Positions 2,382-61,216 of a stretch of DNA of 64,000 nucleotides are shown piece by piece. Every line of letters begins with the position of its first letter. Position 1 is the first letter of the stretch. The notes under the pieces are model-generated. The model ran no database searches and was not told where the DNA came from. It was given only the letters and a program-made list of their open reading frames with translations. The translations under genes and the position numbers were made by a program. The DNA is from a virus, in IMG/VR virus record IMGVR_UViG_3300045988_106278, positions 1-64,000 of that record, one strand, 5' to 3'.

Positions 2382-3502
2382 TTACTGACAATGATTCAAT
2401 ATATGATTATTGGTATGAAGATGGGTATTTGTATGGTAGAAGAAAATCAAATAAAATCCCTTTTAGAATTAATTCTGATAAAGCTAATAAAATAATATAT
2501 CCATAGGTTTAGGCTAAAGGAGTAGATCCTGCTAAACCAACATCTACCTTAGTATACCATCCTGCAAAATATGAAGAAATGCCCACTGCTAAAAAAATAT
2601 CTATTCCTAAATAGGAAGAAGGAACAATATGGGAACGTGGTAAATAGTTGATTAATTTAGTAGGAAATGGATTAAGTAGAAAACTATAGTTATTTTTTGA
2701 TTCAGAACCTGAGCATACTAGTAAAAGAATTAAAATTTCTAATAAAAAAGTAACTAAAAATAAGAGGAGAGAAAATTTAGAAATAGAAATATCTCCAAAT
2801 AGTTATACTATAAATGATACTACTAAAATAAACTCTAGAAGATATCGTATACCAGAATCCATAAATTTAACAAAGCATACTTTTGGTTATAGAAATAGAG
2901 GTGATTATACTCCTATAAATAGTGTAGCAGCTCCTATTACTGCTTTTTCTAATTTCAAATCTAAAGAAAGCATATCTCCTAATAATTAGAATTATATAGG
3001 TATAGATTCTATTGGTAAATTTGTTTTTGGTAAATATTCAGATATTCCTAATGGAAGTATGATTTCTCCAACATTTAAAAATACAGTTACTGGTTTCAAA
3101 ACAGATTCTAAAGATAATGTATTATTCATGGAAAGTAATTCTAATGGTTCTAGAAAAAGTCCTATATTAAATGCCATAGTAAATGGTAAATCAGTAAATA
3201 ACAGACTAAATTTCTTAGCTAATAATAATAGAACTGATGAATATGGTTCTATAGCTGGAGGAAGAATAATTATATAGGCGGGTAAAGAAGTTCGTTTAGT
3301 TTCCGGAAGTATAGATAATATTAGAGATGAGATAGAAGCTATGAAATCTAGAAACAATGTTAAAACAGTAGATTTATATACTTTAGATAATGGTACTTAT
3401 CATTCAGGATTAAGAACTTTTGATAAAATATTTACTAGAGATGACTTACTAAAATATGATGCTCAAAATACGGGCGGAGGAAATTTTTTATATATAAAAT
3501 AA
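2366..3502 (+). CDS. Hypothetical late protein (about 378 aa) with about 9 in-frame TAG codons
   Basis: Frame 2 runs from ATG 2366, which overlaps the previous gene's end, to TAA 3500-3502. ORF-track fragment 3059..3277 lies inside it. Confidence 0.55.
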
Positions 3503-3513
3503 TTAAAACCACA

Positions 3514-3556
3514 ATAGCCGAAGTTTCTCAAATGAGAAGCCTCGGCTATTTTTTTA
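3514..3556 (+). terminator. Rho-independent terminator
   Basis: GC stem tagccgaag ... cctcggcta followed by TTTTTTT, immediately after the late-gene block. Confidence 0.7.
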
Positions 3557-3744
3557 AATTAATAAATATCCATCCCCAAATATTTATTAATAAGTAACAG
3601 ATAATTCATTTAACTTATCACAAAAATCAAGAGTTAATTGATTATCTTGTAAATCATTATCTCCTATAGTATCAATAATCTACTGTACTTCATTAAGTAC
3701 TTTGTTCATTTTAGACTTTAAGTCTTTTAATTCTTTGTTAGTCA

Positions 3745-4026
3745 TTAATCAATTTTTATATAACCATTAACATCTAGATTATCATATATAGAAGTCATTG
3801 TATATCCTGTAATTGGATTTCTATAATGATATTTTTTAATTTCAATATCTTCTTCTGAATTAGAATTTATATTTTGGTTGTCTTTAATCCATTGGTCTAA
3901 ATCAGCTTCTGTTCCATTCTCTAATTGAAATAGAATCTTAGGTTCTGATTTTAATCGTTTTAATTTTTTAGTAAGATTAGTTGTTTTTAAAATCTTACCA
4001 TTTAATTCATAAATTGCTGCTATCAT
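3745..4026 (-). CDS. Hypothetical protein (93 aa)
   Basis: ORF track. It is the downstream member of the minus-strand cassette that holds the suppressor tRNA. Confidence 0.5.
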   Translation of the reverse strand: MIAAIYELNGKILKTTNLTKKLKRLKSEPKILFQLENGTEADLDQWIKDNQNINSNSEEDIEIKKYHYRNPITGYTMTSIYDNLDVNGYIKID

Positions 4027-4101
4027 TTGAAGATTATGTTTTTAAAGTAGAATTAGCGTTATCCGAATAGCACCACGTGGAGGTTTCTACTTACGCTATT
4101 C

Positions 4102-4173
4102 TTCTCCCACAAGGATTCGAACCCTGGCTAAAAGATTTAGAGTCTTCTGTGCTAACCATTACACCATAGGAGA
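4102..4173 (-). tRNA. Amber suppressor tRNA, anticodon CUA (reads UAG); probably Gln identity
   Basis: Hand fold: acceptor TCTCCTA/TGGGAGA with one G-U pair. Anticodon stem is GAAGA/TCTTT with loop CTCTAAA (U33, CTA, A37). T arm is CAGGG-TTCGAAT-CCTTG; length 72 nt. U1-A72 and a D arm almost identical to the co-encoded tRNA-Gln(TTG) suggest Gln identity. Confidence 0.8.
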
Positions 4174-4182
4174 GTATTATCT

Positions 4183-4395
4183 TTATAGATAACTACTAAC
4201 ACTAAAAGGATTTTCAGTAGAAGTAGTTTTAATACTATTAGTGTCTACTGTAATAAACCCATTATGTGGTATATCTTTTAAAACCATATTATCTATAGTT
4301 AATTTAGGTCCATTAATAATATTTACTAGTTCTATTAATTGAGATACTGTAAGATTAGGAACTATCTTATTAATTTTTTGTAATGTTTCTATCAT
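4183..4395 (-). CDS. Hypothetical protein (70 aa)
   Basis: ORF track. It is immediately upstream of the suppressor tRNA in transcription order on the minus strand. Confidence 0.45.
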   Translation of the reverse strand: MIETLQKINKIVPNLTVSQLIELVNIINGPKLTIDNMVLKDIPHNGFITVDTNSIKTTSTENPFSVSSYL

Positions 4396-4579
4396 TTAAA
4401 AAATCCACTATGTGTTTAAATTCTTGTTTATATTTTTTATATTTAGAATTATCTAAATTAGAAGAAAAATCTTCTAAAGATATATCTGAGATAATTCCAA
4501 ATATTAGACAAGCATTGTTAAATGTTTCATCATCTAATTTACTACAATATTCTTCAAATTCATCTACCTTTTTAGTCAT
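4370..4579 (-). CDS. Hypothetical protein (69 aa)
   Basis: ORF track. It is the first gene of the minus-strand cassette. Confidence 0.45.
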   Translation of the reverse strand: MTKKVDEFEEYCSKLDDETFNNACLIFGIISDISLEDFSSNLDNSKYKKYKQEFKHIVDFLNDRNITKN

Positions 4580-4972
4580 GGTTATATGAATTACATTATC
4601 AATAACCTATAAATTTATATTATACTAATCAGGAAGGTCTTTAATACTTTGTATTAGTTGTTCTTTATTCATTTAATATTTCTTTTTGATTACACGAGTA
4701 ATATAGTCGAGGGAGGGAATATTAAAAGTTAATTTTTGTAAAAGTTAATATTTTAAGAAATTAAAATAAAAATTTTAAAATTTTTTTAGAGAAGATTTTA
4801 TATAGCCCCCTGGGGTTTAAAAAATAGGAATTTTTGTAAGTAAGTAGGATGAGGTTAAAATTTAAAAATTAATTTTTATTATGTGGGAGGGAGTAGACTA
4901 CCTCCTTAGTCCCCCCACCATATTTAGTCAAAAAACAAAACAAAAAATTAATAACAATTAAACATTAAGATT

Positions 4973-5443
4973 ATGAAAGGTACAAACAATGAAATCAGTC
5001 TCAGCCTTTTAGGCTTGGAGAAAATGTACAAGGCTGACTTAGGTGAAGCCTTAGTAGAAAACACTGAATTTGCTGTCAGTTTCCCTTACAGTGTAGAGCT
5101 CACGACACGTCAGATGTCCCGTGAACTCACTGCTGATGAGCAGCTCTTGCAACGCACTCATCAGTTAGGAATAGAGTTGACATCTGACGGGCGTGTTCCA
5201 AATGGCGAAGCTCCAATCTTAGTGGGGGTAGGTTTCACTAAGGACAATGACGGCAACATAGTCTTCGGCGGCGGTAACCACGTAATGATTGCCGGCAACT
5301 TTGCAACAGTTTTCGCCGGTAAGACTTGCAAAGAGTGCGCGGAGGCTTATGATAAAGCCGTTAAGGACAACAAGAAAGTAGTAATGAAAGCTACTAGGTC
5401 CGCTAGGGGTAAGATTTGGTCGGAGTTTAGTATCAAGAAGTAA
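4973..5443 (+). CDS. Hypothetical protein (156 aa); GC-rich codon usage atypical for this genome
   Basis: ORF track. Its GC content is far higher than its neighbours. A GC-rich hairpin lies upstream and a strong terminator downstream. Confidence 0.6.
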   Translation: MKGTNNEISLSLLGLEKMYKADLGEALVENTEFAVSFPYSVELTTRQMSRELTADEQLLQRTHQLGIELTSDGRVPNGEAPILVGVGFTKDNDGNIVFGGGNHVMIAGNFATVFAGKTCKECAEAYDKAVKDNKKVVMKATRSARGKIWSEFSIKK

Positions 5444-5445
5444 TT

Positions 5446-5471
5446 AAAGGGGACTTTGTCCCCTTTTTTTA
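5446..5471 (+). terminator. Rho-independent terminator
   Basis: aaaggggac tttg tcccctttttttt. Confidence 0.8.
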
Positions 5472-5502
5472 CTGTTTCTATTTATTTTTTTGTAGTGTTT
5501 GT

Positions 5503-5745
5503 ATGTTTAAGACATTTTATGGATTAGCATTTAAACATTATTTCCTTAACTCTGAAACATTAGAACTTTATCGTAATAAATATATTTCAAATATTGTTTA
5601 TGGTTGGTTTTTAATTGTCTCGGTTGATGGAGGAGCTACATGGGAAGAAGTGAAACATGTTAGTAGTGGAATCTTGGAAATAAGATATAAAAACTATCTT
5701 ATTGGATTAATTTCCGATGTTGAGGAATCTAAAGAGATAAAATAG
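5503..5745 (+). CDS. Hypothetical protein (80 aa)
   Basis: ORF track. Confidence 0.35.
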   Translation: MFKTFYGLAFKHYFLNSETLELYRNKYISNIVYGWFLIVSVDGGATWEEVKHVSSGILEIRYKNYLIGLISDVEESKEIK

Positions 5746-25293: not shown

Positions 25294-26880
25294 ATGGAAC
25301 ATTTAGTTCTTATTGGTGTTATCGCAGTCGTTATTATTGTACTGCTTGTTATTATTGCTACAATGTATGTTAAAGCTCCTCCTTCGATGGCGTACATTCT
25401 TTCAGGTTTTCGTAAGGAGCCACGAGTACTTATCGGTGGTGGTGGAGTAAAAATTCCTGTACTTGAACGATTAGATAAAGTATATCTTGGTCAAGTAACA
25501 GTTGATGTTAAGACTTCACAACCAGTTCCTACTCATGATTTCTTGGATGTAATGGTAGATGCCGTATGTAAAGTTAGGGTAAAACCTGATACAGAAGGCA
25601 CTAGACTTGCAGCTAAGAACTTCTTGAATATGAATTCTGTGCAGATTGCTGCTCAGGTGAAAGATTCTTTGGAGGGTAATATGCGTGAAGTAGTAGGTTC
25701 TCTGGACTTAATTAAGATTAACACTGATAGAGATGCATTCTCTGATGAAATTCAGAAGAAGGCAGCTCCTGATATGGCTAAGTTAGGTCTTGAGATTTTG
25801 TCTTGCAATATTCAGAATATTACTGATGAGAAAGGCTTGATCCGTGATTTGGGAGCTGATAATACAGCAGCTATTCAGAAAAATGCTAAGATTACTCGTG
25901 CTAATGCTGATAGAGACGTAGCTAAGGCTCAAGCTGAGGCTGACAATGAAGCTAATGAAGCACGAGTAAAGGCTGATACCATTATTGCTGAACGTAATAA
26001 TGAATTAGCTATTAAGAGAGCTGAACTGAAGAGATTGTCTGATATTAAGAAGGCTGAATCTGATGCTGCATATGAAATTCAGCAGCAGGAGCAGCAGAAG
26101 ACTATTAATATCAAGACTGTAGATGCTGATATTGAGAAGACTCGTAAAGAACAGACCTTATCTGAAGAGAAGATTAAGATTAAGCAGAATGAGTATCTTG
26201 CAGATGTAAATGCTAAAGCTGATGCTGACAAGTATCAGACAGAAATTGATGCTCAGGCTGCTTTGGAGAAGCAGAAGCGTGAGGCTGAGGCTGAAGCTTA
26301 TAAAGCAGAGCAAACTGCTAAGGCTGTAAAAGCTAAGGCTGAAGCTAATCGTTATTCTCAGGAGCAGGAGGCAGCAGGTATTCGTGCTAAGGGCGAAGCT
26401 GAAGCATATGCTACTCAGCAGACCTTAACTGCGGAAGCTGAAGGTACTAAAGCTAAACTTTTGGCAGAAGCTGAAGGTACTAAAGCTAAACTTTTGGCAG
26501 AAGCTGAAGGTGTGAAGGCTAAGGGTCTTGCAGAAGCTGAGGCTATGCAGAAGAAGGCTGAAGCATACAGTAAGTATGGCTCTATTGCTGTAATTGACAT
26601 GCTTTCTAAACTTAATGAGAAAGTTCTTCCTGATATGGCTAAGTATATTGCTGAACCTATGAGTAAGATTGGCAATATGACAGTTTATGGAACTAATGGT
26701 TCTGAGGCTTCTGGTATTTCTGGTAATGTGCCTGCTATTATTAAGCAGACTCGTGACATTGTAAAAGATGCCACAGGTGTAGATATGGCAGACATTATGA
26801 AGGCTAACACCATTGATGCTAAGGTTAACAAGAATGTTAACGTTAATGGCGATGTAGAAAACACCAATGTAAATGTATAA
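25294..26880 (+). CDS. Flotillin-like SPFH/band-7 domain protein (528 aa) with N-terminal TM helix and Ala/Glu-rich coiled coil
   Basis: N-terminal TM LVLIGVIAVVIIVLLVIIATMYV, followed by a region read as SPFH-like, then a long AEAEA coiled coil with tandem repeats. GC-rich codon usage. Confidence 0.7.
   Translation: MEHLVLIGVIAVVIIVLLVIIATMYVKAPPSMAYILSGFRKEPRVLIGGGGVKIPVLERLDKVYLGQVTVDVKTSQPVPTHDFLDVMVDAVCKVRVKPDTEGTRLAAKNFLNMNSVQIAAQVKDSLEGNMREVVGSLDLIKINTDRDAFSDEIQKKAAPDMAKLGLEILSCNIQNITDEKGLIRDLGADNTAAIQKNAKITRANADRDVAKAQAEADNEANEARVKADTIIAERNNELAIKRAELKRLSDIKKAESDAAYEIQQQEQQKTINIKTVDADIEKTRKEQTLSEEKIKIKQNEYLADVNAKADADKYQTEIDAQAALEKQKREAEAEAYKAEQTAKAVKAKAEANRYSQEQEAAGIRAKGEAEAYATQQTLTAEAEGTKAKLLAEAEGTKAKLLAEAEGVKAKGLAEAEAMQKKAEAYSKYGSIAVIDMLSKLNEKVLPDMAKYIAEPMSKIGNMTVYGTNGSEASGISGNVPAIIKQTRDIVKDATGVDMADIMKANTIDAKVNKNVNVNGDVENTNVNV
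26438..26503 (+). repeat. Tandem 33-nt repeat (2 copies plus a partial one) inside the flotillin-like gene, encoding AEAEGTKAKLL repeats
   Basis: gaagctgaaggtactaaagctaaacttttggca repeated exactly at 26438 and 26471. Confidence 0.8.
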
Positions 26881-34562: not shown

Positions 34563-35062
34563 ACTTAGTTTGGTTGAAATTAATAAAGCGAATCTTAACC
34601 CATAAGTATTATGTTGCTAAATATTGCTTTCAAATAGGATTATATTGGCAAGGTATTACTCATGATTTGTCTAAATTTAGTTTTACAGAATTTTCAAGAG
34701 CTATTAAGTATTGGGATGATAATATAAGTTCATTAGCGAATGAATGTAGAATATTAGGATATAGTCAAACATTCCTTCACCATAGAGGAAGAAATCCTCA
34801 TCATTATGAATATTGGATACATTCCTTAGATAATGGAGGAATTCCTGCTAAAATGCCTAAAAAATATGTTCTAGAACTTATATGTGATTATTTAGCAGCA
34901 GCTAAAACATATGGAGCTGACCCTAGAAGAGAATATACATGGTGGCTTAAACAACAGCCTCATATGAAAATCCACAAAAAAACTAAGAGTTATATAACTG
35001 AAGTGTTTTATAAATATAGTATAGGTTTAACATTAAAAGAATCAATTAATGGAAATTATTAA
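34559..35062 (+). CDS. Hypothetical protein, possible HD-family phosphohydrolase (167 aa)
   Basis: The spacing of His/Asp residues (LTHKY ... GITHDLSKF ... FLHHRGRNPHHYEYW ... D) resembles an HD motif, weakly. Sits directly upstream of the NAD+ cluster. Confidence 0.3.
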   Translation: MNLVWLKLIKRILTHKYYVAKYCFQIGLYWQGITHDLSKFSFTEFSRAIKYWDDNISSLANECRILGYSQTFLHHRGRNPHHYEYWIHSLDNGGIPAKMPKKYVLELICDYLAAAKTYGADPRREYTWWLKQQPHMKIHKKTKSYITEVFYKYSIGLTLKESINGNY

Positions 35063-35891
35063 TGCAACTGATGGCTATAAGCTTGGTCATCATCGTATGT
35101 ACCCAAAGGGTACACAAATGGTCTATAGTAACTGGACTCCTAGAAGTAATCGTTACTTCCCAGAAGCTATAGAAGGTTCTGTAGTATTTGGTATTCAGTA
35201 CTTTGTAAAGAAGTATTTGATAGAGGAATTTAACAAATGGTTTGCTCTTCCTAAGGAAGAAGCTATTAAGCAATTTGCTTATCGTGTAGGTAACTTTGTA
35301 GACCTTAACCAGGTTGGGACAAAGCATATTGAAGAACTCTATGATTTAGGATATCTTCCTATTGAAATTAAAGCTCTTCCTGAAGGTTCTATCTGTCCTA
35401 TAAGAGTACCTATGATGACTATTAAGAACACTCTCCCGGACTTCTTTTGGTTGACTAATTACTTGGAAACTTTAATTAGTTGTACTCTATGGCTTCCTTG
35501 TACTTCTGCAACAAGTGCTCGTCTTTATAAGAAGAGACTTATGGAACATGCTAGAAAGACTGGATTCCCAGAGGAAGTAAATCTAGGGTTCTCTTGTCAC
35601 GATTTCTCAATGAGAGGTATGGCAGGACTTGATGCTGCTATTATCTCCGGTATGGCTCATATGACCTCATTCTGTGGTAGTGAAACAATTCCTGCTATTG
35701 AAGCAGTAGAGCATTATTACGATGCAAATGTTACTGAAGAACTTGTAGCTGCAACTGTCCCGGCTTCGGAACATTCAGTGGCTTGCTCTACTATTAGTGA
35801 TTTTGAAGATAATGTAGAAGAAATAATCTTAGATGATTTTGGTAAATTAATTGGATATATTGATAAAAATGGAGACAAAAATTTGTTCTAA
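35049..35891 (+). CDS. nadV: Nicotinamide phosphoribosyltransferase-like (NAMPT/Namat), N-terminal fragment of a split gene
   Basis: TDGYKLGHHRMYPKGT and ...VPASEHSV are NAMPT family motifs. It ends ...FGKLIGYIDKNGDKNLF*, while the rest of the family domain is in 36458..37300. Confidence 0.75.
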   Translation: MEIINATDGYKLGHHRMYPKGTQMVYSNWTPRSNRYFPEAIEGSVVFGIQYFVKKYLIEEFNKWFALPKEEAIKQFAYRVGNFVDLNQVGTKHIEELYDLGYLPIEIKALPEGSICPIRVPMMTIKNTLPDFFWLTNYLETLISCTLWLPCTSATSARLYKKRLMEHARKTGFPEEVNLGFSCHDFSMRGMAGLDAAIISGMAHMTSFCGSETIPAIEAVEHYYDANVTEELVAATVPASEHSVACSTISDFEDNVEEIILDDFGKLIGYIDKNGDKNLF

Positions 35892-36480
35892 TTGTGGTTA
35901 GGAAAAACCTATTTCAGAATTTCCTAAGTGTAAAAGAAATAAAGATGGGTTAGATACTCATTGTAAAGAATGTAGAAATGCTAAAAATAAAGCATATAGA
36001 GAGGCTAATAAAGATAAAGTTAAAGTAGCTAGACATAAATATTATGAAGAAAATAAAGAGCATATATTAGCACAAAAGAAAATTTATGCAGATGCTCATA
36101 AAGAAGAAAAAGCTGCTTATGACAAAATTTATAGACAAGAAAATAAAGATAAATTACGGGAGCAAAAAAGAATATGGGAAAGAAATTCTTTAAAGTTTAA
36201 AATTCGTAATAACCTCAGACGTAGAGTGGCACATACTATGGAATTAATCGGATGTTCTATAGAATTTTTAAAAGAATATATTGCAAACAAATTTACTGAA
36301 GGAATGTCCTGGGATAATTATGGTGAATGGCATTTAGATCATATAAGACCATGTTCCTCTTTTGATTTATCTGATCCTATATAGCAAAAAGAGTGTTTCT
36401 GTTATAAAAATTTACAGCCTTTATGGGCTATTGATAATTTGAAAAAAGCGTATAAATATGAAAATTCAAAAAGCGTCTGA
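35869..36480 (+). CDS. HNH homing endonuclease (203 codons, two in-frame TAG), inserted between and overlapping both NAMPT halves
   Basis: METKICSNCG(TAG)EKPISEFPKCKRNKDGLDTHCKEC... has a Zn-finger-like N-terminus. GEWHLDHIRPCSSFDLSDPI(TAG)QKECFCYKNLQPLWAIDNLKK is an HNH motif. Ends at TGA 36478-36480. Missed by the ORF track because of the TAGs. Confidence 0.7.
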
Positions 36481-37300
36481 AGAGGACAAAAAACTTATTG
36501 GAGAATTATTGTCAATTAAAAGATTGATAAATGAATTATATCCTATTGGAATTGTATCTATAGTTAGTGATACTTATGATTTTTGGAGAGTGATAGAACG
36601 TATTCTCCCTCGTCTGAAAAAAGACATTATGAAGCGTGATGGTCGAGTAGTAATTCGTCCTGATAGTGGTGACCCAGTAGATATTATTTGTGGTCTTCGT
36701 ACAAATCCTCATTACCACACTGCAATGAAGGAAGGCAAGTACTATTGTGATTTCAATCCATTTATGGATGATGATGAAAGTCATTATGTAGAAGTATCTG
36801 AAGGTCAGTATTATGGAGCATATTATATGCTAGGTAAAATCTTTGGATGGAATACTACTGTAAATGATTATCGTTATCCAAGCACCAAGGTTGGGTTGCT
36901 CTATGGAGATTCTATCACTCTAGAGCGTCAGCGTGATATCTATGCTCGATTAGAGAACGCTCATATGGCAGCTTGTAATCTTGTTCTTGGTATTGGATCT
37001 TATACTTATCAGTTTAAGAGTCGTGATTCTTTGGGATTCGCAGTTAAAGCAACTGCTTGTATAATCAATGGAAAGCTTATAGAAATCTATAAGCATCCAA
37101 AGACTGATGATGGAACAAAGAACTCTCTCAAAGGTCTTATTAGAATTGAAGAAGAGAATGGTAAGTATGTCGCTTATGACCAGCAGACTAAGGATGCAGA
37201 ACTGCAAGGTTGTCTTAAAACAGTCTTTGTAGATGGAGAATTAGTAAGAGAATATTCTCTTTCTGAGATTCGTGAACGTGTAAATTCAACATTAGTATGA
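36458..37300 (+). CDS. nadV: Nicotinamide phosphoribosyltransferase-like (NAMPT/Namat), C-terminal fragment of a split gene
   Basis: SIVSDTYDFW and VIRPDSGDPVD (the RPDSGD motif) are NAMPT hallmarks. It carries its own ATG, which overlaps the 3' end of the HNH gene. Confidence 0.75.
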   Translation: MKIQKASEEDKKLIGELLSIKRLINELYPIGIVSIVSDTYDFWRVIERILPRLKKDIMKRDGRVVIRPDSGDPVDIICGLRTNPHYHTAMKEGKYYCDFNPFMDDDESHYVEVSEGQYYGAYYMLGKIFGWNTTVNDYRYPSTKVGLLYGDSITLERQRDIYARLENAHMAACNLVLGIGSYTYQFKSRDSLGFAVKATACIINGKLIEIYKHPKTDDGTKNSLKGLIRIEEENGKYVAYDQQTKDAELQGCLKTVFVDGELVREYSLSEIRERVNSTLV

Positions 37301-56926: not shown

Positions 56927-57023
56927 ATAATATTTTGAAATAACTATATAAGCACTATATTATTAGTTCAGTACTAGTATTATAGTGCTTATTTCGTAGA
57001 TGATTTAAAATGTTAATTTATAA

Positions 57024-60000
57024 ATGTTATTTATGGTAATAAAGAGAGACGGAATTAAAGAAGAGTTTAACAGAAACAAAATTAGAGATGCTGTACTAAA
57101 GGCTTTTGGAATTACCCAAAATTCTAGTAAAACAATGGACGAAGATATTTACAGAGCAGTTACTGAGATAACTAATTCTGTAGTAGAGACTGAAGATCAA
57201 TCTATTGAGGATATTCAAGACCAAATTGAGGAACTCCTAATGGATTTAGGGTATCATGACGTAGCTAAAAAATATATTCTATATCGTAAAGAACGTGAAG
57301 ATATTAGAAATCATGCTACTAGGGATATTAAATTTATTCATAATTTTGTAAAGTCTGATAATACTGCTAATGCTACTATTGATGATAATAGTAATGTTGG
57401 AACTAAAGGTATTGGAGTATTAAACGCTGAAATACATAAAGTCGATAATAAACTTACTAATACAGAATGGTGGGAAAGTTTTGTAAAGAAGAGAGACCCT
57501 AACTTTAATATAAAAGTTATGAGGAATGACTTTAAAACTATTTTGTATCCTCATGACTCATCTTCTCAAGTAGGGGAACCATATTGTATGGCAACTTCTA
57601 TGTATCCTTTCTTGTTGTTTGGATTAGAGAAATTAGGAGGTAAATCAGCTGTTCCAAAGAACCTTGATTCATTCTGTGGTATTTATGTAAATTTAAACTT
57701 TGCATTAGCCTCTGAAATTAAAGGAGCAGTAGCTACTCCTGAGTTTCTGATGTATATGGATTATTTCTGTAGAAAAGAATGGGGAAATAATTATTATCTC
57801 AAACCAAGTGTAAAAATAACTACAGATTATTGTATAAAACAGAAAACTATTGGCAGTCAAATTGATCAATATTTCCAACAGGTAACTTATTCAATTAATC
57901 AAATAGCAGGATCTAGAGGAATGCAGTCTCCATTTACAAATTTTTCATTCTTTGATAAATATTTCTTTGAAGGTATGTTTGGAGAATTTGTATTTCCAGA
58001 TGGAACAAAGCCAGAATGGAATTCTACTAATTGGTTACAAAGACGTTATTTACATTGGTTAAATCAAGAAAGATTAAAATGTATTTTAACATTTCCTGTA
58101 TGTAGTTATGCCTGCTTAACAGATAAGGAAGGGAATTTTAAAGATTTAGATACTTTCCATTTTATATGCAGTGAATATGCTCAAGGAAATTCTTTCTTTA
58201 CTTATCTGTCTCGTAGTGTAGATAGTTTAAGTTCATGTTGCTTTTCTAAAGATACTAAGTTTTTATGGAAATCTAGCACTTCTGGAGTACATCTAACTAC
58301 CTTTGAAGAATTTAAAAATCTTCCATATAAAAATATGAAAGAGAATTTTAAAGTATTTCACAATGGCTCTTGGGTAGCTGGCAAAGTTATAGATTTACCT
58401 AATCGTCCTATGTATAAAGTTACCACTTATAATAATAAAGAGTTTATTATGACTGATAATCATATAAATGTAACTTTACAAGGAGAAAAACCAACAGAAC
58501 AGTTAACTATTAATGATTACTTATTATTCAATACTTCTAAGTTAAGTGCTATTCCAGATAATAATGAACATTTAACTTACGCCCAAGGTTATGTAATTGG
58601 ATCATTTTTAGGTGATGGCTCTTTTAGTTCTGAAATAAATGGAGTTATCTATGATATTAATTTATCCCAAAATGAACAAAAATATAAACGTTCTAAATTT
58701 TATTGGAATCTCGCATTAAAACAAATGGGATATGAACCTAACGTGGTTTTAAAAGAAGTAGTAAATAATGTTTATCCATTAAGAGTATCTAATAAAAATT
58801 TAGTTGCTTTTATTCAAAAATGGACTAATTGGTATAGAGGAACTTATGCTTATAATAAGAAATTAAACATGAATTGTCTTCTTCAATCTGTAAAATTTAG
58901 AGAAGGTATACTACAAGGATGGTATGATACTGATGGGGGAAATTCTAACAGATGCTACACGACTTCTCCTGAATTAGCAGAAAATATGGAAGCCTTAATA
59001 ACTTCTTTAGGAATGCAAAGCATTATTAATATATCAGATAGAACAGATGAAGAAGTTATAATACGCGGGGAACATTATAAAAGAAATTACCCATTATATT
59101 GTGTAAGATGGTATGAAGATGCAAATCATAGAGCTAATAAAGACGAGGAACATAGTTGGATAAAATATAATAATGGAATATACTTTAAAATAAAATCTAT
59201 CGAACCATATGATTACAATGATAGAGTATATTGTATAGAATGTAAAAATGCTTCTGAACCATATTTTACATTACCAAGTGGATTAATTACTCATAATTGT
59301 CGTCTTCAAAATGCCGTACAAGAAAATACATTTAATACTACTAATGGTCAAATAGGTATAATGACTGGTAGTAAAAATGTTATTACTCTTGATTTAAATA
59401 GAATTATTCAAGATTGGCAGCATACTTGGTCTGATTATAAAGACCATATTGATGTTGATACCAATAAATGTTGTTTCCCAGTAGATTGGATTACACATAA
59501 AGACTTCCAAGAAGGAATTAAGAAATATATAGAAAATATTCTTGAAAGAGTTTATTTGTATCAGTATGCTTATAACGACTTAATGCATTGGTGCAAAGAT
59601 CATCATTTATATGCTGCTTATGATGCTGGTTTTATTAATCTTGATAAACAGTATTTAACTATTGGAATTAATGGCTTAAATCAGGCTGCTGAATACTTAG
59701 GAATGGAATGTAATAATAATATTTATTATAAGACATTCTGTAGATTAATATTCAGTACTATAAAAGAACAGAATAAGAAACATAAAACTAAAACAGCTCA
59801 ATTTAATACTGAACAAGTACCCGCAGAAAGTGCTTCAGTAAAACTTTATAATAGAGATAAAGCTGATGGCTATTGGATTCCTACAGATACTAATCTGTAT
59901 GCTAGTTATATATTTAAACCTAATGATACACATATAAGTATACTTGATAAAATTATACTTCATAGTTCTGAATTCGCTGCTGATGAATTAGATGGAGGTT

Positions 60001-60311
60001 CTGCTTGTCATCTTAATTTATCTGAACATTTGAGTCAGAAACAATATGAGTATTTACTTAAATTTATGGCTAAAGTAGGTTGTAAATATGCTACTTTTAA
60101 TATTCCTAATTGTGAATGTGAAGAGTGTCATTTTATAGCAAAACAACCGTTTAGTAAATGTCCTAAATGTGGTAGTACTCATGTAAGTCTATGGGATAGA
60201 ATTATCGGCTATCTTACAAAGATTTCTAACTGGAGTGCTGCTAGACAACTAGAAGGTAGTACTAGAAGTAGAAAGAATGAATTAGAAATTAATATAGAAT
60301 TAGCACAATGA
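57024..60311 (+). CDS. nrdD: Anaerobic ribonucleoside-triphosphate reductase NrdD (class III) containing a LAGLIDADG intein
   Basis: N-terminal ATP cone (VIKRDGIKEEFNRNKIRDAV). C-terminal Zn ribbon CECEECHF...CPKCGS and glycyl-radical region DRIIGYL. The 1095-aa length is explained by an internal intein of about 353 aa. Confidence 0.75.
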   Translation: MLFMVIKRDGIKEEFNRNKIRDAVLKAFGITQNSSKTMDEDIYRAVTEITNSVVETEDQSIEDIQDQIEELLMDLGYHDVAKKYILYRKEREDIRNHATRDIKFIHNFVKSDNTANATIDDNSNVGTKGIGVLNAEIHKVDNKLTNTEWWESFVKKRDPNFNIKVMRNDFKTILYPHDSSSQVGEPYCMATSMYPFLLFGLEKLGGKSAVPKNLDSFCGIYVNLNFALASEIKGAVATPEFLMYMDYFCRKEWGNNYYLKPSVKITTDYCIKQKTIGSQIDQYFQQVTYSINQIAGSRGMQSPFTNFSFFDKYFFEGMFGEFVFPDGTKPEWNSTNWLQRRYLHWLNQERLKCILTFPVCSYACLTDKEGNFKDLDTFHFICSEYAQGNSFFTYLSRSVDSLSSCCFSKDTKFLWKSSTSGVHLTTFEEFKNLPYKNMKENFKVFHNGSWVAGKVIDLPNRPMYKVTTYNNKEFIMTDNHINVTLQGEKPTEQLTINDYLLFNTSKLSAIPDNNEHLTYAQGYVIGSFLGDGSFSSEINGVIYDINLSQNEQKYKRSKFYWNLALKQMGYEPNVVLKEVVNNVYPLRVSNKNLVAFIQKWTNWYRGTYAYNKKLNMNCLLQSVKFREGILQGWYDTDGGNSNRCYTTSPELAENMEALITSLGMQSIINISDRTDEEVIIRGEHYKRNYPLYCVRWYEDANHRANKDEEHSWIKYNNGIYFKIKSIEPYDYNDRVYCIECKNASEPYFTLPSGLITHNCRLQNAVQENTFNTTNGQIGIMTGSKNVITLDLNRIIQDWQHTWSDYKDHIDVDTNKCCFPVDWITHKDFQEGIKKYIENILERVYLYQYAYNDLMHWCKDHHLYAAYDAGFINLDKQYLTIGINGLNQAAEYLGMECNNNIYYKTFCRLIFSTIKEQNKKHKTKTAQFNTEQVPAESASVKLYNRDKADGYWIPTDTNLYASYIFKPNDTHISILDKIILHSSEFAADELDGGSACHLNLSEHLSQKQYEYLLKFMAKVGCKYATFNIPNCECEECHFIAKQPFSKCPKCGSTHVSLWDRIIGYLTKISNWSAARQLEGSTRSRKNELEINIELAQ
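58236..59297 (+). mobile_element. Intein with LAGLIDADG homing-endonuclease domain inside nrdD
   Basis: Begins ...SLSSC|CFSKDTKF (Cys1) and ends GLITHN|C (His-Asn plus the +1 Cys). Two LAGLIDADG motifs, YVIGSFLGDGSF and ILQGWYDTDGG. The start is ambiguous by one codon because of the CC dipeptide. Confidence 0.65.
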
Positions 60312-60571
60312 AAAGAATATTAAAATTTGAAGCAGAGTGGTGTGGACAATGTAAAGCTTTAGCACCTATTTTAAAAAGAGTATTAGAAAATCATACTGAT
60401 ATTACTTTAACTACAGTAGATATAGAGACAGAGGAAGAAACTACTCTTAAATATAATATTAGAAATCTTCCAACTCTTGTATTTATAAAAGATAATATAG
60501 AGGTAGGAAGAACTTCTGGAGTTTTAACTGCCGATATGATTGAGAATAAAATTAAAGAGCTCTATGCTTAA
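60308..60571 (+). CDS. trx: Thioredoxin
   Basis: Active-site motif WCGQCK (compare WCGPC) in an 87-aa protein next to nrdD and nrdG. Confidence 0.7.
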   Translation: MKRILKFEAEWCGQCKALAPILKRVLENHTDITLTTVDIETEEETTLKYNIRNLPTLVFIKDNIEVGRTSGVLTADMIENKIKELYA

Positions 60572-61040
60572 ATATGTTGATACAGCTGTTACTTTTGCAG
60601 AATTTCCTAATGAAGTTTCTCTATGTATTAACATCAGTAACTGCAATTGTTTCTGCGATGGTTGCCACTCACCTTATTTGTCAAAAGATATTGGAGAAGT
60701 GCTATCATTGGAACGACTCCAAGGATTAATTGAATCTAATAAAGGAATTACATTAATAGGATTTATGGGAGGAGATTCTGATCCAAAAGAAATAAATAAA
60801 TTAGCTAAATGGGTTAGAGAAAATTATCCCGAATTACATATTGGATGGTATAGTGGTAAACAAGAATTAGCTGATAGTGTTATAGATATTGATAATTTTG
60901 ATTATCTTAAACTTGGTCCTTATATGAAACAATTTGGACCATTAAATAATCCGAATACTAATCAAAAATTTTATAAGATAGATAGAAATGCCCATATAAT
61001 GATATGGTGTACGAATATATTTTGGAAGGAGGCTGAATAA
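60540..61040 (+). CDS. nrdG: Anaerobic ribonucleotide reductase activating protein NrdG (radical SAM)
   Basis: Cys cluster CNCFCDGC (CX3CX2C). The true start is probably the internal MLKYVDT. Overlaps the trx gene end. Confidence 0.6.
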   Translation: MRIKLKSSMLKYVDTAVTFAEFPNEVSLCINISNCNCFCDGCHSPYLSKDIGEVLSLERLQGLIESNKGITLIGFMGGDSDPKEINKLAKWVRENYPELHIGWYSGKQELADSVIDIDNFDYLKLGPYMKQFGPLNNPNTNQKFYKIDRNAHIMIWCTNIFWKEAE

Positions 61041-61053
61041 GCCTCCTTTTTTA
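61027..61053 (+). terminator. Rho-independent terminator
   Basis: aggaggct gaataa gcctcct ttttt, overlapping the nrdG stop codon. Confidence 0.7.
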
Positions 61054-61216
61054 GTTTTTATGGAGTGTGCAATTTTAAATTACGGTGTAGGAAGTGTTGA
61101 CTTAGTAACAGTTCCAGATGATATTAATGATGTAGAAGTTTATTTATGTGATGTTCTTGGTTACAGAGAAGATGAAATAGAATTTATGATTAAAGAGAGT
61201 AAAATTAATGTAGAAG

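Follow-up and report, generated by a model that had tools for sequence, protein, structure and literature searches.

The window, a 64,000-nucleotide stretch of viral DNA, carries an nrdD gene whose product is too long for an anaerobic ribonucleotide reductase (RNR). The question raised by this locus is what the additional segment is, how it is maintained and how the enzyme could work in spite of it. Taken as one joint explanation, covering the operon, the intein, its homing and the thioredoxin as reductant, it is very likely that nrdD, a thioredoxin gene and nrdG form the class III (anaerobic) RNR operon of a human-gut crAss-like phage, in which nrdD is interrupted by a class-1 intein with a nested LAGLIDADG endonuclease.

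The operon and its source

The NrdD precursor is encoded by a single ORF of 3288 nt (57024..60311, plus strand, as are all features described here), which gives 1095 aa including the intein. An alternative start is found at ATG 57033, and the proteins of sibling phages have been called as 742 or 739 aa. The thioredoxin gene follows (60308..60571, 87 aa), its start overlapping the nrdD stop in the sequence ATGA, and then the gene of the putative NrdG activase (60564..61040, 158 aa from ATG, as in the gene calls of L002 and L019), which overlaps the thioredoxin stop by 8 nt; the longest nrdG ORF opens at TTG 60540. These overlaps suggest that the three genes may be translationally coupled. A terminator-like hairpin with a T-run (61024..61060) spans the nrdG stop, the hairpin itself (61024-61050) having an 11-bp stem, a folding energy of -17.3 kcal/mol and a z of -3.5. 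The closest relatives originate from human faeces, one of them is labelled Crassvirales and their contigs reach about 186 kb; the source is a crAss-like phage and not a bacterium. The initial annotation had proposed this operon, with a thioredoxin gene placed between nrdD and nrdG, a terminator at its end and a gut host, and each of these elements was recovered, the terminator as the hairpin and the host through the faecal origin of the relatives.

The thioredoxin matched PF00085 with 70.4 bits (cut-off 23.5) and has the CxxC active site, in the form WCGQC instead of WCGPC. It is short, with a shortened N-terminus, and scored under the equivalog cut-off of TIGR01068 (69.8 vs 96.8 bits). The nrdG product reached 140.8 bits against TIGR02826, under the cut-off of 151.7 but by far its best-matching family, and its radical-SAM CX3CX2C motif reads CNCFCDGC.

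NrdD itself is assigned by its domains and motifs to the class III RNR catalytic subunits of the NrdDh or 'SCCR' type, with an ATP-cone preceding the NrdD domain. The Pfam model NRDD matched the 1095-aa protein with 228.7 bits, split in two stretches, and NCBIfam TIGR02827 with 577.3 bits (cut-off 568.3) in three stretches, while the allosteric ATP-cone domain lies at 57033..57299 (aa 4-92, PF03477, 71.1 bits). The SCCR motif is the hallmark of NrdDh, and both of its Cys were found to be essential by mutagenesis (PMC4493059). In the NrdD spliced in silico this region reads SSC|CRL and aligns to 328-SCCR-331 of Thermotoga maritima. Moreover, the glycine encoded at 60207..60209 (RIIGYL; Gly1062 of the precursor and Gly709 after splicing) aligns with the Gly of the T. 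maritima glycyl-radical loop RIVGYL (PMC4493059) and is the predicted radical site, and the C-terminus contains a Cys cluster, CxC...CxxC. T. maritima NrdD is also the best PDB match of the phage protein (E 1.7e-53). The SCCR motif, the RxxGY glycyl-radical motif and the C-terminal Cys cluster are shared with the NrdDh of T. maritima and Neisseria bacilliformis, although identity to these is about 30% or less. The phage enzyme differs from them by its additional ATP-cone and intein and by a thioredoxin of its own encoded next to it.

The segment inserted in NrdD

Alignment to intein-free NrdD placed the insertion exactly inside the SCCR motif, with one Cys on either side (S-C|C-R). The N-extein (57024..58238, aa 1-405) ends in SLSSC, Cys405 supplying the first of the two motif Cys. 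The intein (58239..59297, 353 aa, NrdD aa 406-758) runs from CFSKD to LITHN, and the C-extein (59298..60311, aa 759-1095 plus stop) starts with CRLQN, its Cys759 being both the second SCCR Cys and the predicted +1 nucleophile. At the DNA level these boundaries are ambiguous by 2-3 nt because TGY Cys codons stand at both ends.

The residues expected for splicing are conserved in an alignment of 36 intein sequences, that of the window included. Cys1, the predicted block A nucleophile (Cys406, codon 58239..58241), is Cys in 35/36. The block B motif T-x-x-H (58452..58463, intein T72-D-N-H75) has Thr in 30 sequences and Ser in the other six, with His in 35, and blocks F/G (59223..59297), RVYCIECKNASEPYFTLPSGLITHN, end in His352-Asn353 (H757-N758 of the precursor), which are His in 34 and Asn in 35 of the sequences. 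The Pfam model Intein_splicing (PF14890) scored 29.8 bits, under its gathering score of 35.8; the nested endonuclease interrupts the match to this model, to which homologues carry precomputed matches. The structure predicted with AF2 (pLDDT 92, pTM 0.91) found its best Foldseek matches among the TliVMA, PhoVMA, PI-PfuI, PI-PkoII and PI-SceI inteins (E 8e-17 to about 1e-10, TM 0.58-0.68). With the intein alone, phmmer gave no match among PDB sequences and a profile search gave weak matches (E 0.03-0.05), so that the relation to solved inteins emerged from the comparison of folds. From its canonical splicing residues and its modelled fold, the 353-aa segment can be classed as a class-1 intein with a Hint domain. 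The solved inteins share with it the Hint domain, the nested double-LAGLIDADG endonuclease and the Cys1, His-Asn, Cys+1 chemistry, but they are only 10-15% identical in sequence and reside in V-ATPase, class II RNR or DNA polymerase. The window intein is also smaller, and an additional region for DNA recognition, such as PI-SceI has, is not obvious in it. An element acting at the DNA level, namely a group I intron with an in-frame ORF, was rejected given the continuous frame, the Hint fold and the lack of any intron match in the window.

Removal of the intein in silico leaves a 742-aa NrdD, and more than 100 intein-free NrdD proteins of sibling phages (742 or 739 aa) are 98-100% identical to this spliced product over their full length. 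In addition, the DNA of one sibling (L002) shows against the window an exact 1059-bp gap at the intein. Because of these two observations the insertion is not a chance artefact. Most sibling genomes are without the intein, and IMG/VR holds 12 empty alleles and two occupied ones. Altogether five occupied copies, from four independent genomes, were found (the L019 copy matches that of the window at 100% identity), and the 3288-nt ORF is unbroken in all five. The list from the intein protein search was not used for allele frequencies; it under-samples long precursors and is without the window's own 1095-aa protein, though this is recorded on five contigs. The excess of about 350 aa in NrdD and the textbook intein boundaries (Cys first, His-Asn last, Cys next), both pointed out in the initial annotation, are borne out by these data, and the contrary outcome, a native insertion lacking splicing motifs, is excluded by the many empty-site alleles together with the intact splicing residues.

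The endonuclease and signs of mobility

Two LAGLIDADG motifs had also been reported for the intein, and both are present, as YVIGSFLGDGSF and GILQGWYDTDGGN. The first, GYVIGSFLGDGSF (58587..58625), contains the catalytic Asp126 (LGD126G) and lies in the match to Pfam LAGLIDADG_3 (PF14528, 26.1 bits vs a cut-off of 22.5). The second, EGILQGWYDTDGGNS (58902..58946), with the catalytic Asp232 (TD232GG), was located by alignment and by the fold match to I-DmoI, which ranks in Foldseek after the solved inteins (target TM 0.64-0.69). The predicted fold is that of an endonuclease-containing intein, and a putative monomeric two-motif LAGLIDADG homing endonuclease is encoded.

The intein DNA is 99.4-99.9% identical in the four genomes (1-6 of 1059 nt differ), whereas 27-50 of the 1735 nt of the flanks differ in the same genomes (1.6-2.9%), giving Poisson P values of 1.5e-5 to 2e-9. 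Just 3' of the insertion, where the empty site reads AGTTCATGT|TGTCGTTTACAGAATGCC, two to three synonymous changes are tightly linked to the presence of the intein: the Leu-Gln codons at 59304..59309 are CTTCAA in 5/5 occupied copies, while among the 13 empty alleles 12 read TTACAG and one reads TTACAA; the nucleotides at +7 and +9 are seen only where the intein is present. The uniformity of the intein against its flanks, along with these changes confined to a very short tract at the junction, carries the sequence signature of homing. In co-infected cells the freed intein would cleave nrdD copies that lack it, at the place where SCCR is encoded, and the intein would then be copied into the cut gene by recombinational repair; the CTTCAA change may protect the occupied alleles from cleavage or be a mark of co-conversion. 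Alternatively, the intein could diverge so little because it was acquired once and recently, the flanks having since been exchanged by ordinary phage recombination.

It is also conceivable, though fairly unlikely, that the intein still splices but has lost its endonuclease activity, and that it is inherited vertically or spread only by general phage recombination on its way to a mini-intein or to loss. Occupied alleles are indeed in the minority (2/14 in IMG/VR), the same site also hosts mini-intein derivatives that have no endonuclease (P0116-P0118), and among the 36 aligned sequences the catalytic Asp is replaced, mostly by Asn, in six at Asp126 and in three at Asp232. Moreover, the three differences between the inteins of the window and of L001 are all non-synonymous. 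Nevertheless the window copy retains both catalytic Asp and all conserved LAGLIDADG Gly, the confidence of the model is high in its endonuclease domain, and a near-identical intein is found across diverged backgrounds, all of which speaks against this reading.

Much less probable is that the intein is unable to splice, which would leave nrdD a dead gene and the phage dependent on the host RNR. Splicing is here predicted from sequence and fold, and a Cys at -1 beside Cys1 is an unusual junction context. However, Cys occupies -1 in 34/34 aligned sequences covering that column, and the intein family therefore tolerates this context; the ORF is intact in every occupied copy and the extein proteins have stayed 98-100% identical to functional-looking siblings. 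That the segment is instead a domain native to NrdD that does not splice, or a loop expanded in this lineage, as the score of Intein_splicing under its cut-off and the insertions known in RNR families might suggest, has practically no likelihood left and is refuted by siblings which lack exactly these 353 residues (with the exact gap in the DNA) while being 98-100% identical elsewhere in NrdD, by the splitting of SCCR between two essential Cys and by the full set of splicing residues in an intein fold.

Narrow Rfam scans revealed group I introns in the nrdD of sibling phages, at two sites other than that of the intein, and both sites are empty in the window copy. Rfam at its gathering threshold missed an insertion in sibling nrdD, and it gave no match for the gap within the split NAMPT gene.

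Relatives of the intein and the proposed maturation of NrdD

Homologous inteins occupy the same NrdD site in Clostridium phage c-st, in a Desulfovibrio phage and in about 120 metagenomic NrdDs. That of c-st has been noted as a putative intein (PMC3653736), and by sequence the window intein belongs to this allelic family. The intein of Clostridium botulinum phage c-st (CST076) and phage D-1873 likewise interrupts an NrdDh protein, at the site ...ASC|C...THN|CRL, and combines Hint with LAGLIDADG. The c-st and window inteins are 48% identical over the whole intein whereas their exteins are only 28% identical; the former has 330 aa and the latter 353 aa, and the gene order is glutaredoxin-nrdG-nrdD in the Clostridium phage but nrdD-trx-nrdG in the crAss-like phage. 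The c-st intein is presumably listed in InBase, and no paper was found under its InBase-style name 'CbP-C-St'.

Intron- and intein-laden nrdD genes have been described in general terms for gut phages, namely Zeta crAss-like phages (PMC7886860) and Jug jumbo phages (PMC12880540). Together with the group I intron of T4 nrdD they show that self-splicing mobile elements have entered this gene repeatedly; the window copy has a protein-level element only. No description of this intein or its site in crAss-like phages was found in the literature searched. The intein is real and well supported, but its kind has already been described in other phages. It is on its own ordinary, though textbook-clean, and its value resides in the natural population that surrounds it, in which near-identical phages have or lack the intein and, independently, have or lack the two group I introns in nrdD. 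This population is a ready system for the study of homing, of the length of co-conversion tracts and of the cycle of gain and loss of selfish elements, set in one of the most abundant phage groups of the human gut. It also provides correct nrdD gene models for genomes in which gene callers fragment the gene.

As the intein splits SCCR, the 1095-aa precursor should be inactive. Splicing would start with an N-S acyl shift at Cys406 and proceed by transesterification to Cys759; cyclisation of Asn758 and an S-N shift would then rebuild SCCR in the 742-aa NrdD, on which NrdG, as a radical-SAM enzyme, would generate the glycyl radical at Gly1062 (precursor numbering). The position of the intein within SCCR, flanked by the two catalytic cysteines, places three reactive cysteines at the junctions of the precursor (Cys-1, Cys1 and Cys+1), and splicing could therefore be redox-gated, with disulfides among them stalling it under oxidising conditions and the co-encoded thioredoxin or a reducing cytoplasm releasing it. 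We regard this gating as unlikely, although the mycobacterial DnaB intein offers a precedent of redox-conditional splicing (PMC6195587). If true, the oxygen-sensitive NrdD would mature only when able to work, and the intein would be a regulatory switch and not a pure parasite.

The adjacency of the genes and the precedent of N. bacilliformis, for whose SCCR-type NrdD a thioredoxin-type reductant is reported (via PMC4493059), suggest that the phage thioredoxin probably provides NrdD with reducing equivalents and is not a chance passenger. This role leans on one characterised homologue, and T. maritima NrdD was not supported by E. coli thioredoxin (PMC4493059). The presence of a phage thioredoxin next to nrdD lends in turn circumstantial support to the existence of thioredoxin-dependent NrdDh enzymes.

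The nrdD operon and its inserted segment

The window is AT-rich (G+C ~28%) and small plus-strand genes are tightly packed around the nrdD locus. The nrdD precursor ORF (57024-60311, plus strand, 1095 aa) encodes an N-terminal ATP-cone (Pfam, 71.1 bits); its Pfam NRDD match (228.7 bits) is split into two separated stretches and that to NCBIfam TIGR02827 (anaerobic RNR, "Bdellovibrio type") into three (577.3 bits, cut-off 568.3). On the same strand follow a thioredoxin gene, trx (60308-60571, 87 aa, WCGQC, PF00085 70.4 bits), whose start overlaps the nrdD stop in ATGA, and, after an 8-nt overlap, nrdG (60564-61040 from ATG, the longest ORF beginning at TTG 60540), whose product carries a CX3CX2C motif. 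The gene order of the initial annotation is borne out by these Pfam and NCBIfam matches, though the nrdG product (TIGR02826, NrdG activase family) reaches 140.8 bits, slightly below the cut-off of 151.7. Where the operon-end terminator was predicted there is a terminator-like structure, an 11-bp GC-rich hairpin and T-run (61024-61060, plus strand, dG -17.3 kcal/mol, z -3.5). Another hairpin (56928-57015, 25-nt arms, dG -32.2 kcal/mol, z -7.2) spans nearly all of the 97-nt intergenic region 5' of nrdD and is near-invariant in 12 sibling genomes, while the coding flanks there differ by 2-5%; it could terminate transcription of the gene before it or help to regulate the operon. The hairpin shows no covariation.

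The extra segment of about 350 aa described in NrdD was delimited as 353 aa (nt 58239-59297, plus strand; aa 406-758, CFSKD...LITHN), with ...SLSSC on its N-terminal side and CRLQN on its C-terminal side. Its removal in silico leaves 742 aa, and more than 100 database proteins of 742 or 739 aa match this spliced NrdD over 100% of its length with 98-100% identity; they sit on contigs as long as ~186 kb, one with the label Crassvirales. The sibling genome L002 has an empty-site allele, with 98-99% DNA identity to the window on either side of an exact 1059-bp gap, which rules out a native NrdD insertion, the outcome that would have refuted the initial annotation.

Predicted splicing and endonuclease, and position in the enzyme

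Within the NrdD ORF, Pfam LAGLIDADG_3 was matched with 26.1 bits (cut-off 22.5) and Intein_splicing below threshold (29.8 against 35.8), and sequence-only searches with the intein gave weak results. When the window intein was aligned with 35 homologues of 36-68% identity (n=36, window counted), it held every conserved residue tabulated: Cys1 (35/36), T72 and H75 (30 and 35 of 36), Asp126 (30/36), Asp232 (33/36), His352 and Asn353 (34 and 35 of 36) and the cysteines at -1 and +1 (34 sequences each). Moreover, the AlphaFold2 model built on the homologue alignment (pLDDT 92, pTM 0.91) had as top Foldseek matches in the PDB the endonuclease-containing inteins TliVMA, PhoVMA, PI-PfuI, PI-PkoII and PI-SceI (E 8e-17 to ~1e-10, TM 0.58-0.68), followed by I-DmoI, aligned to the central domain. 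The conserved splicing and Asp residues and the predicted fold support an intein with a LAGLIDADG homing endonuclease; the observation is confirmed and its original interpretation supported.

The closest solved relative is T. maritima NrdD (E 1.7e-53), in which 328-SCCR-331 aligns with SSCCRL of the joined exteins and the glycyl-radical loop RIVGYL with their RIIGYL. Subclass NrdDh is marked out by SCCR; this motif aligns with MGCR of T4 NrdD, the site of the radical cysteine, and both C329A and C330A are inactive (PMC4493059). The intein therefore separates two essential cysteines, the second of which doubles as the +1 splicing nucleophile. Beyond the observed insertion anatomy, occupancy among siblings, catalytic residues, predicted fold and population signature, self-splicing would rebuild SCCR, Gly1062 would be activated by NrdG and the phage thioredoxin would reduce the enzyme; thioredoxin is named as the reductant of N. 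bacilliformis NrdDh in PMC4493059.

Probable mobility and relatives of the intein

When IMG/VR was scanned by pattern for the site of this phage, 12 alleles were empty and 2 occupied, and the identical 1095-aa precursor is recorded on 5 further contigs. In four independent occupied genomes the inteins differ at 1-6/1059 nt and the flanking exteins at 27-50/1735 nt (Poisson P 1.5e-5 to 2e-9). The DNA upstream and downstream diverges by up to 5%. All occupied copies have TGT CGT CTT CAA at the 3' junction, where 13/13 empty alleles have TGT CGT TTA CAG or CAA; among the 1735 nt only +7 and +9 are fully associated with the intein. This uniformity and the junction-linked changes are the footprint to be expected if an endonuclease drives homing and co-conversion tracts are very short; the endonuclease would cut empty alleles during co-infection and the intein would then be copied in. 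The same low intein divergence may also reflect a single recent gain followed by recombination of the flanks, and the junction changes could alternatively be target changes that shield occupied alleles.

Homologous inteins occupy the same ...SC/C...HN/CRL site in Clostridium phage c-st (CST076), phage D-1873 and Desulfovibrio phage 7757. As further evidence of mobility, inteins of distant phages resemble each other more than their hosts do, those of the window and c-st being 48% identical and the host proteins 28%. Homologues were also found in ~120 metagenomic NrdD fragments, some of them mini-inteins without endonuclease; in three database proteins (P0116-P0118) these lie between SC and CR, measure ~145 aa and lack the LAGLIDADG domain, a stage consistent with a cycle of intein gain, decay and loss. 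The c-st intein has been noted (PMC3653736), intron and intein densities are high in the large genomes (145-192 kb) of Zeta crAss-like phages (PMC7886860), among which class III RNR with ATP-cone is widespread (PMC12386605), and gut Jug phages have intron-fragmented nrdD and "Intein_splicing" proteins (PMC12880540). With the c-st, Zeta and Jug precedents, the window intein belongs to an already known kind.

Other elements in sibling loci and in the window

Two more nrdD insertions, both missing from the window, are polymorphic among siblings. The first, at EQVP/AES (empty site 59822/59823), measures ~307 bp, or ~1.25 kb in L008, is also present in L015 (1479-1795), L018 and L009, and matches the Rfam Group I intron with 54.3 bits, over the gathering score of 50; the last exon codon there is CCC in the uninterrupted window instead of CCT. 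In Desulfovibrio phage 7757 (L004) the intein-bearing nrdD ORF (2435-4858) ends near this site, with a 217-aa HNH-type ORF (5059-5712) behind it, so use of the EQVP intron site seems to extend to a distant phage. The second lies in a Tyr codon, one base past the glycyl-radical Gly codon (empty site 60210/60211), measures 318 bp or ~1.06 kb and is present in L001 (6183-6500), L015 (2172-2495), L006, L008 and L011, the ~1.06-kb copy of L011 holding a 256-aa HNH-type ORF; it matches the Rfam Group I intron below the gathering score (36.5-40.6 bits, E 2e-7 to 5e-9). In addition, some siblings have between trx and nrdG a free-standing 238-aa ORF (L011 8222-8938; same place in L008), inserted with a 12-nt duplicated junction, which may be a free-standing homing endonuclease.

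Elsewhere in the window, a nicotinamide/nicotinate phosphoribosyltransferase appears to be divided between two 280-aa ORFs (35049-35891, NAMPT_N and NAPRTase positions 1-60; 36458-37300, NAPRTase positions 72-238), which suggests another intervening element; the 566-bp gap between them gave no hit in Rfam. A 528-aa SPFH/Band 7 and flotillin-domain protein is encoded at 25294-26880 amid phage replication-region genes. There are 14-15 tRNA genes, among them those at 4102-4173 (minus), 11396-11480 (plus) and 14025-14097 (plus) and two arrays, one at 10.8-14.4 kb and the other at 30.2-31.7 kb. Stop-codon recoding is reported in crAss-like phages, and the putative suppressor tRNAs of the window agree with it: one tRNA has anticodon CTA and reads UAG, and an 85-nt tRNA with a poor anticodon stem was called with anticodon TTA and would read UAA, which would be unusual for a suppressor. 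One odd tRNA gene has a two-base "anticodon".
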